Below, one piece after another: positions 63,376 through 63,804 of a stretch of 64,000 nucleotides of DNA. A program made the position numbers and the translations under genes. Within the stretch, counting starts at the first letter, position 1, and each line of letters opens with the position of its first letter. This DNA comes from Escherichia coli (GTDB lineage: Bacteria > Pseudomonadota > Gammaproteobacteria > Enterobacterales > Enterobacteriaceae), in assembly GCF_044324875.1 (NCBI RefSeq), contig NZ_CP172185.1, one strand, 5' to 3'. The notes under the pieces were generated by a model, which was not told the DNA's origin, did not search any database, and saw only the letters and a list, made by a program, of their open reading frames with translations.

Positions 63376-63804
63376 TGCTATCAATTTCCTGCCTGTTTAT
63401 ACCCGGCCATTGCAAGGTGAAAACCCTGGGCACCGACGTCTTTAGATAAATCTTACGGTATAAATAGCACTTTTGCCTGATTTGAAATTGATACCTTTTT
63501 AATGGTCACCTGAATAAAAATAATTCATTGATATTCAAATTAATTTTCTACAGGAATGCAGAGGCGGCGGGAAGATATGCCCTTAATGCCACTGAAAAAA
63601 CCACATAATCTGTACGGCAATAAAAGTCACGGCCTAATCTGGCTAACAAACAATCAATTGTGATATAGTTCACAAAATTAATGAAACAAACAGAGTGTTT
63701 CATTTTTGTGTCCTGCAAGCCCCGCGATAGCCAGATTGTATCACGCCTCCCGTGAACAACGCCGCGCTGTCCGAGGCATCGGCTCTTTTCAGAGGAATTG
63801 TTTG

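Follow-up and report, generated by a model that had tools for sequence, protein, structure and literature searches.

The divergent spacer between pdeC (yjcC) and yjcB of Escherichia coli carries a short inverted repeat, which raises the question of whether this repeat is a site recognized on the DNA by a protein, a hairpin of a messenger RNA or a palindrome without function, and which of the two genes it serves. It was analysed in a stretch of 64,000 nucleotides of the E. coli contig NZ_CP172185.1 (RefSeq assembly GCF_044324875.1), hereafter the window, numbered from its first letter. The sequence and coordinates of the repeat given in a preliminary description were found correct on re-reading of the window. 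That description called it a perfect 8-bp repeat; it is indeed perfect, but its arms reach 9 bp after extension by one pair. The inverted-repeat search gives two arms of 9 nt each, 100% complementary, on either side of a 7-nt loop:

63680-63688, + strand: left arm, or left half-site, AATGAAACA, with the core TGAAAC at 63682-63687; +4 to +12 of the yjcB mRNA.
63689-63695, + strand: 7-nt centre AACAGAG, whose sequence is not conserved.
63696-63704, + strand: right arm, or right half-site, TGTTTCATT, with the core GTTTCA at 63697-63702; +20 to +28 of the yjcB mRNA.

As a bare inverted repeat, this dyad is within chance expectation. Indeed, 30 dinucleotide-preserving shuffles of the window, in which perfect repeats with loops of 3-12 nt were counted, contain 11.6 +/- 4.8 inverted repeats of 8 bp and 3.5 +/- 2.3 of 9 bp per 64 kb. 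It is conservation that lifts the dyad above chance.

The position of the repeat relative to the two genes can be settled from the following features of the spacer and its borders:

61789-63375, - strand: pdeC (yjcC) coding sequence (K-12 annotation), whose start codon lies 305 bp from the repeat.
63617-63631, + strand: marbox gcaataaaagtcacg, a MarA ChIP-seq site (PMC5684230, Table 1) placed by sequence match; -60 to -46 relative to the yjcB start.
63639-63650, + strand: conserved block CTGGCTAACAAA (orthologue consensus CTGGCGAATAAA) of the -35 region, made of near-invariant columns in 59 orthologues and including the -35 element CTAACA.
63659-63674, no strand assigned: perfect CRP core TGTGA-TATAGT-TCACA (TGTGATATAGTTCACA), found from the sequence, with its centre at -10.5 relative to the yjcB start.
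63664-63669, + strand: -10 hexamer TATAGT of the yjcB promoter (Shimada 2014), which doubles as the 6-bp spacer of the CRP site.
63677, + strand: yjcB transcription start (A), the primary start NC_000913.3 4275169 (-) of PMC12987492, Table 1, placed by base-by-base mapping.
63805-64000, + strand: yjcB coding sequence, cut by the end of the window (K-12 annotation).

A table based on Cappable-seq places the primary start site of yjcB at K-12 position 4275169 on the - strand (PMC12987492). Base-by-base mapping identifies this position as the A preceding TTAATGAAAC, i.e. window position 63677, 8 nt downstream of the TATAGT hexamer, and the 5' UTR is therefore 128 nt long and the repeat occupies +4 to +28 of the yjcB transcript. 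The spacer measures 429 bp both in the window and in K-12, not 420 bp as first described, and the repeat, which was thought to lie upstream of both genes, is in fact inside the yjcB transcription unit. The sequence of a sigma-70 SELEX fragment (Shimada 2014) predicts the pdeC promoter at about 290 bp from the repeat, which is therefore attributed to yjcB; given this distance and the 305 bp to the start codon, a role of the dyad in the control of pdeC is unlikely.

The remainder of the spacer calls for a few observations of its own. Its identity among E. coli strains ranges from 92% to 99%, and the A+T-rich middle part (63480-63560) is the most variable one, with 1-nt indels. An imperfect inverted repeat, TGAATAAAAAT/ATTGATATTCA, is located at 63511-63537, and H-NS binding has been marked in the spacer (Shimada 2014).

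The promoter to which the dyad belongs is partly documented. It has been given as CTAACA-15-TATAGT (Shimada 2014), and it is known from this literature, consensus scans of the spacer having detected no sigma-70 site. The block at 63639-63650 is more invariant than a weak -35 element would need and may hold a further binding site; a sigma-54 reading of the conserved CTGGC block was rejected on reading the sequence, which has no GC at -12. Besides the MarA site, yjcB has been named as a SoxS target by ChIP-exo (PMC5684230). The gene is strongly induced by acid (RNA log2 fold change of 5.9 at pH 4.4) and is also induced by antibiotics (PMC12987492).

The closest neighbour of the dyad, absent from the preliminary description, is a perfect CRP site, conserved to great phylogenetic depth, which shares bases with the -10 box and whose core ends five bases before the left arm. 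This site is centred at -10.5, since its spacer is the -10 box and the start is at 63677. It was a top computational prediction of PhyloScan in 2007, and the yjcB<>yjcC spacer is a published genomic-SELEX target of CRP in vitro. Deletion of crp increases yjcB expression according to published RNA-seq and qPCR, and yjcB is one of the 14 genes of the crp-KO iModulon, together with the acid-induced genes bhsA, ybiJ and yedR. The position at -10.5 is a repressing one, in agreement with the crp-deletion, iModulon and genomic-SELEX results. In this, yjcB resembles the promoters that CRP represses by binding over the core promoter: a consensus site covers the -10 box and start region, and expression rises in a crp deletion. 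The likeness concerns, however, the CRP site, and the dyad is an additional element downstream of it.

The conservation of this arrangement was followed within E. coli and then far beyond it. The 76-bp segment made of the CRP site and the repeat is found in 5421 of 5426 complete E. coli genomes, with at least 95% identity in all but 5. The variants seen among sampled strains are an A to C change at 63680, which affects the outermost pair, and rare ones such as A to T at 63702, seen in one strain. The species of Escherichia have identical arms but different loops (AACAGAG, AACAGAA, AGATTTAGC, CACTAAT or CAATAAT).

A scan with YjcB, limited to one genome per species, gave 37 loci, from Escherichia to Erwinia and Serratia. 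TGTGA-N6-TCACA is present upstream of yjcB in all 37 genomes (as CGTGA in four of them), even with a YjcB identity as low as 43%. The spacer of the CRP core varies in Erwinia and Serratia, where a TATAAT-like motif overlaps the left half of the core instead (gaTATAA-TGTGA). A scan of metagenomes with the CRP core plus CAT added 43 yjcB promoters, and as these loci were chosen by their CRP core, what they show of conservation is confined to the sequence downstream of this core.

Conservation across enterobacterial genomes, a check already suggested for this repeat, is indeed found, in Escherichia and in 59 distinct promoters of Enterobacteriaceae. A left half TGN(A/G)A(C/T) follows the CRP core after 6-8 nt in all 59, with T at its third position in 29, A in 22 and C in 8. 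The exact hexamer GTTTCA is found in 54 of them, 9-10 nt beyond the left half and 21-23 nt after the CRP core, and the right half reads GTTTCATT in 44. The sequence between the half-sites drifts. Erwinia species carry another dyad, ATGAC(C/T)-N5-GTCAG (TGAC-N7-GTCA), about 5 nt after the CRP core, and Serratia has no dyad at the corresponding place.

A functionless chance palindrome, retained merely as a part of a tightly constrained promoter, would be compatible with the number of perfect 8-9 bp repeats expected in 64 kb and with the conservation of the entire 75-bp promoter block. The conservation observed is, however, patterned: only the loop varies among the species of Escherichia, the arms being invariant, and both halves are maintained at a fixed spacing in 54-59 of the 59 promoters, across many genera. 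This explanation is thus very improbable, and the dyad is a conserved element of the yjcB promoter.

The same comparison reveals several other features of the locus. The distance from the CRP core to the ATG of yjcB is 146 nt in Escherichia versus 64-81 nt in Yokenella, Pseudenterobacter and an Enterobacter-like metagenome group (L022, L023, L025 and most of L044-L091); the leader of Escherichia and Citrobacter hence contains about 70 extra nt, G+C-rich and with predicted structure (about 63712-63790 of the window). Within the leader, GATAGCCAGA (63726-63735, +50 to +59) is kept in Escherichia, Citrobacter, Intestinirhabdus and some Leclercia-like sequences, and may represent an sRNA target or a structured part of the leader. 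E. coli OkiPb01679 (L098) has a 4-bp deletion at 63652-63655, between the -35 block and the CRP/-10 element; its promoter spacer should hence be shorter, and yjcB may be silent in this strain. Lastly, a 9.5-kb contig labelled Flavobacterium paronense (NZ_JAUFQN010000013.1, L004) encodes a YjcB 100% identical to that of K-12 behind an identical promoter, and is almost certainly an E. coli contamination of the assembly.

If the dyad is functional, does it act as DNA or as RNA? The preliminary description had left the choice between an operator and a small hairpin of a 5' UTR. Both readings survive, as the position +4 to +28 fits either of them, and the data across species favour the operator. 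Hairpins of the ompA type at the 5' end of an mRNA slow its 5'-end-dependent decay. A 5'-terminal stem-loop of the yjcB mRNA could likewise hinder this decay (RppH, RNase E access) and stabilise the stress-induced message. The geometry is suitable: the transcript starts with AUU, i.e. 3 unpaired nt between the start at 63677 and the stem beginning at 63680, followed by a 9-bp stem, and a stem-loop within 3-4 nt of the 5' end is precisely what likens yjcB to the ompA type. The yjcB stem differs from that type in being A/U-rich, weak (-6.9 kcal/mol in E. coli, z = -1.2 against dinucleotide-preserving shuffles) and absent from most orthologues.

Comparison of the folds gives contrasting pictures depending on the left half. 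The 15 sequences with TGAAAC fold at the corresponding place with a mean of -7.0 kcal/mol (z = -2.1), and the sequences with TGAGAC or TGAAAT form strong hairpins on the + strand (-10.7 and -11.7 kcal/mol) but less stable ones on the - strand (-5.9 and -8.2 kcal/mol). This advantage of the + strand results from pairing kept through G-U; indeed, the changes found in Phytobacter/Kosakonia and in Atlantibacter preserve pairing through G-U only, on the + strand, as expected for an RNA. About 10 sequences have strong hairpins that include G-U pairs, and the independent events behind these G-U pairs are few (about 3-4 lineages). By contrast, the region +1 to +36 folds at -3.9 kcal/mol (z = -0.56) in the 27 sequences with TGTAAC and at -5.0 kcal/mol (z = -0.9) in the 7 with TGCAAC. 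These two groups, 34 of the 59 promoters (about 60%), have no hairpin above the level of shuffled sequence, and the structures predicted for them vary from sequence to sequence, yet both half-sites are still conserved in them.

Covariation is similarly divided. In an alignment of 27 sequences, 77% of the cells are paired and both sides change in three of the nine pairs. The outer pair covaries (ATG/CAT, GTG/CAC, TTG/CAA), the inner pairs change from ACA/TGT to ACGG/CCGT, and the covariation score exceeds that of 493 of 500 shuffles and is reached by the other 7. However, the change from A to C or T at the third position of the left arm is never compensated (8 of the 27 sequences are unpaired at that pair, which joins columns 33 and 50) and the right arm is almost invariant instead of covarying. 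No Rfam match (Rfam 15, E-value up to 1) was obtained on either strand of 63300-64000. Maintenance of the half-sites where the hairpin is absent favours recognition of the DNA. These comparisons thus favour two DNA half-sites that would be read sequence-specifically, the hairpin being a by-product wherever the halves are symmetric, and a stabilising stem-loop is rather unlikely to be the main role of the dyad; the hairpin may nevertheless be an added function in some lineages.

Another role at the RNA level, that of a transcription attenuator (hairpin and U-run) or of the start of a small leader ORF, is suggested by the right arm running into TTTTTGTGT and by both arms beginning with ATGAAACA, which opens an ORF of 24 codons on the + strand and one of 51 codons on the - strand:

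63681-63755, + strand: small ORF starting in the left arm, not conserved.
63548-63703, - strand: small ORF starting in the right arm, not conserved.

A terminator scan found nothing at the repeat, G-C pairs make up only two of the nine pairs of the stem and the U-run is no longer present in species other than E. coli. In E. albertii, a stop closes the + strand ORF after 4 codons, and the Enterobacter-like group has nothing more of it than ATG-TAA or CTG-TAA. The - strand ORF is interrupted by a 1-nt indel variable among E. coli strains, and no Shine-Dalgarno sequence is present. It is therefore hardly conceivable that the dyad is an attenuator or the beginning of a leader peptide.

The dyad is thus best read as DNA, and it probably constitutes an operator for some dimeric protein. 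Which protein this would be is a more difficult question. A full-text literature search found no paper tying a regulator to the repeat, as the preliminary description had presumed, and it likewise found no link between CytR and yjcB, in binding or in expression, and no CytR ChIP data covering the site. From their letters, the halves TGNAAC/GTTNCA are of the LacI/GalR type. To our knowledge, the members of this family other than CytR need abutting halves. TGAAAC and GTTTCA, in the arms of E. coli, are exactly the two hexamers of the Cra (FruR) consensus. The halves of a Cra site abut (TGAAAC-GTTTCA), whereas those of yjcB are 9 bp apart and the left one is TGTAAC or TGCAAC in other genera. More generally, we know of no other E. 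coli regulator whose consensus fits, the spacing or orientation being wrong for Cra, GalR/GalS, TyrR, MetR, OmpR, RstA, CpxR and EvgA. CytR is a LacI-family repressor with a flexible linker and the sole member known for widely spaced half-sites and for cooperative binding beside cAMP-CRP (as reviewed in the literature). It is proposed here, tentatively, as the candidate protein of the yjcB dyad.

Several properties of the dyad support this candidate. The arms AATGAAAC and GTTTCATT of E. coli each match the published CytR octamers AATGCAAC/GTTGCATT at 7 of 8 positions, the core C being the one that is missing, and the left half is TGYAAY in 37 of the 59 orthologues (T at the third position in 29, C in 8), which corresponds to the SELEX consensus of CytR, AATGYAAC, the complement of GTTRCATT. 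The half-sites of the E. coli udp operator recur as ATGCAAC...TTTGCGT in Atlantibacter subterranea and in a closely related locus that bears the label C. freundii M21. The octamers are separated by 9 bp in Escherichia and by 10 bp in most other genera; published CytR half-sites are 0-3 bp apart or, with CRP, about one helical turn apart (10-13 bp), and the 9 bp of Escherichia, 1 bp below that range, are counted here as agreeing with it. Furthermore, a CRP site stands beside the putative operator: its perfect core ends 5 nt before the left octamer, and the centres of the two sites are 25.5 bp apart.

Other features argue against CytR. The halves of E. coli are devoid of the C of the TGCAA core that is found in the udp, deoP2, nupG, ycdZ and cdd operators, and almost every species has GTTTCA as its right half, TTGCA never occurring at this place. 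With the exception of cytR, all CytR promoters have a second flanking CRP site; at yjcB, the only candidate for a second site about 52-53 bp away is TGTGTcctgcaAGCCC, which is 48 bp off, matches one of five positions in its right half and is not conserved. CytR orthologues have been reported in Erwinia tasmaniensis and Serratia proteamaculans, and yet the dyad differs in Erwinia and is missing in Serratia. The G-U-only pairing on the + strand in Phytobacter/Kosakonia and Atlantibacter, described above, points to RNA and thereby also away from CytR. CytR is an anti-activator of CRP-activated promoters. At yjcB, however, CRP is centred at -10.5 and a crp deletion raises expression; as CRP itself looks like a repressor here, CytR is not needed to explain repression, and if CytR acts at this promoter, CRP would be a co-repressor only.

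Among known targets, the promoter of cytR itself offers the nearest likeness. It has a single CRP site and a promoter-proximal operator whose first half-site begins 6 nt past TCACA, as at yjcB: TCACA-cttttc-ATGAAAAT-t-CTGTAACC in cytRp (operator bases assigned from the published description and the sequence) versus TCACA-aaatta-ATGAAACA in yjcB. By our own reading of cytRp, its half-sites are TGAAAA and TGTAAC, which correspond to the two variants shown by the yjcB left half in different genera. The cytRp half-sites are, however, direct repeats with a 1-bp spacer, while those of yjcB are inverted, 9-10 bp apart and downstream of the start. In addition, the CRP site of cytRp presumably activates from far upstream, at about -64.5 as judged from its sequence, while that of yjcB covers the -10 box.

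The cassettes of ycdZ (nupT), a predicted CytR target, and of udp and deoP2 can be compared in the same way. CRP-N4-ACTGCAAC-N12-GTTGCATA in ycdZ and CRP-N5-AATGAAAC-N9-GTTTCATT in yjcB share the same order of a CRP core, 4-5 nt, a left octamer, a long spacer and an inverted right octamer, and the 25.5 bp between the operator and CRP centres of yjcB fall within the 19.5-32.5 bp found for udp and deoP2. These three cassettes have a second CRP site 52-53 bp away and the TGCAA core, neither of which exists at yjcB in E. coli. They also lie upstream of CRP-activated promoters of nucleoside genes, whereas yjcB is a stress-induced gene encoding a small inner-membrane protein.

The operator might also be that of another dimeric protein, such as a repressor responding to stress or acid, which would bind TGNAAC-N9-10-GTTTCA just past the start independently of CRP. 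The phylogenetic footprint is as much evidence for such a protein as for CytR, the fixed distance to CRP could merely reflect the presence of the -10 box and the start site inside or near its core, and the strong induction of yjcB by acid and antibiotics makes further regulators plausible. Nevertheless, the half-sites are typical of the LacI/GalR family, with the constraint on spacing mentioned above. Moreover, loss of CRP activity may explain acid induction without another factor, because the crp-KO iModulon to which yjcB belongs also contains the acid-induced bhsA, ybiJ and yedR. A protein of this kind is therefore an unlikely owner of the site.

Globally, the dyad would form the central part of a conserved operator placed at +4 to +28, within the initial transcribed region of the yjcB promoter; most likely, this operator binds a repressor and works with the neighbouring CRP site over the -10 box. 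A dimeric repressor would read the two half-sites on the DNA; CRP at -10.5 and CytR at +4 to +28 would form a single repression complex over the core promoter, and yjcB would be off at high cAMP without nucleosides and released by the loss of cAMP-CRP or by cytidine. Taken as a whole, the proposal is speculative but possible: yjcB might be a member of the CytR/CRP regulon with an unusual layout, conserved across Enterobacteriaceae, in which the single CRP site over the -10 box has no role but that of co-repressor and CytR binds a dyad of widely spaced halves in the initial transcribed region, the bases of this dyad perhaps serving also as a 5' mRNA hairpin in some lineages.

The CRP site, the start site and the binding of MarA and SoxS are already published; what appears to be new is the dyad, with the CytR proposal, and this gain is incremental. 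YjcB is an uncharacterised small inner-membrane protein, and its gene is among the most strongly induced of E. coli at pH 4.4 and under antibiotics. Its promoter can now be described at base level, with a marbox at -60 to -46, a conserved -35 block, CRP over the -10 box and a dyad at +4 to +28, a model that explains the rise of yjcB in a crp deletion. If the dyad were an RNA hairpin, it would be an ordinary stabilising element. If it is a CytR site, the small CytR regulon would extend beyond nucleoside genes and would include a case where CRP serves only as co-repressor, and the membership of yjcB in the CytR/CRP regulon would place a small membrane protein strongly induced by acid and antibiotics under the influence of cAMP and nucleoside signals.
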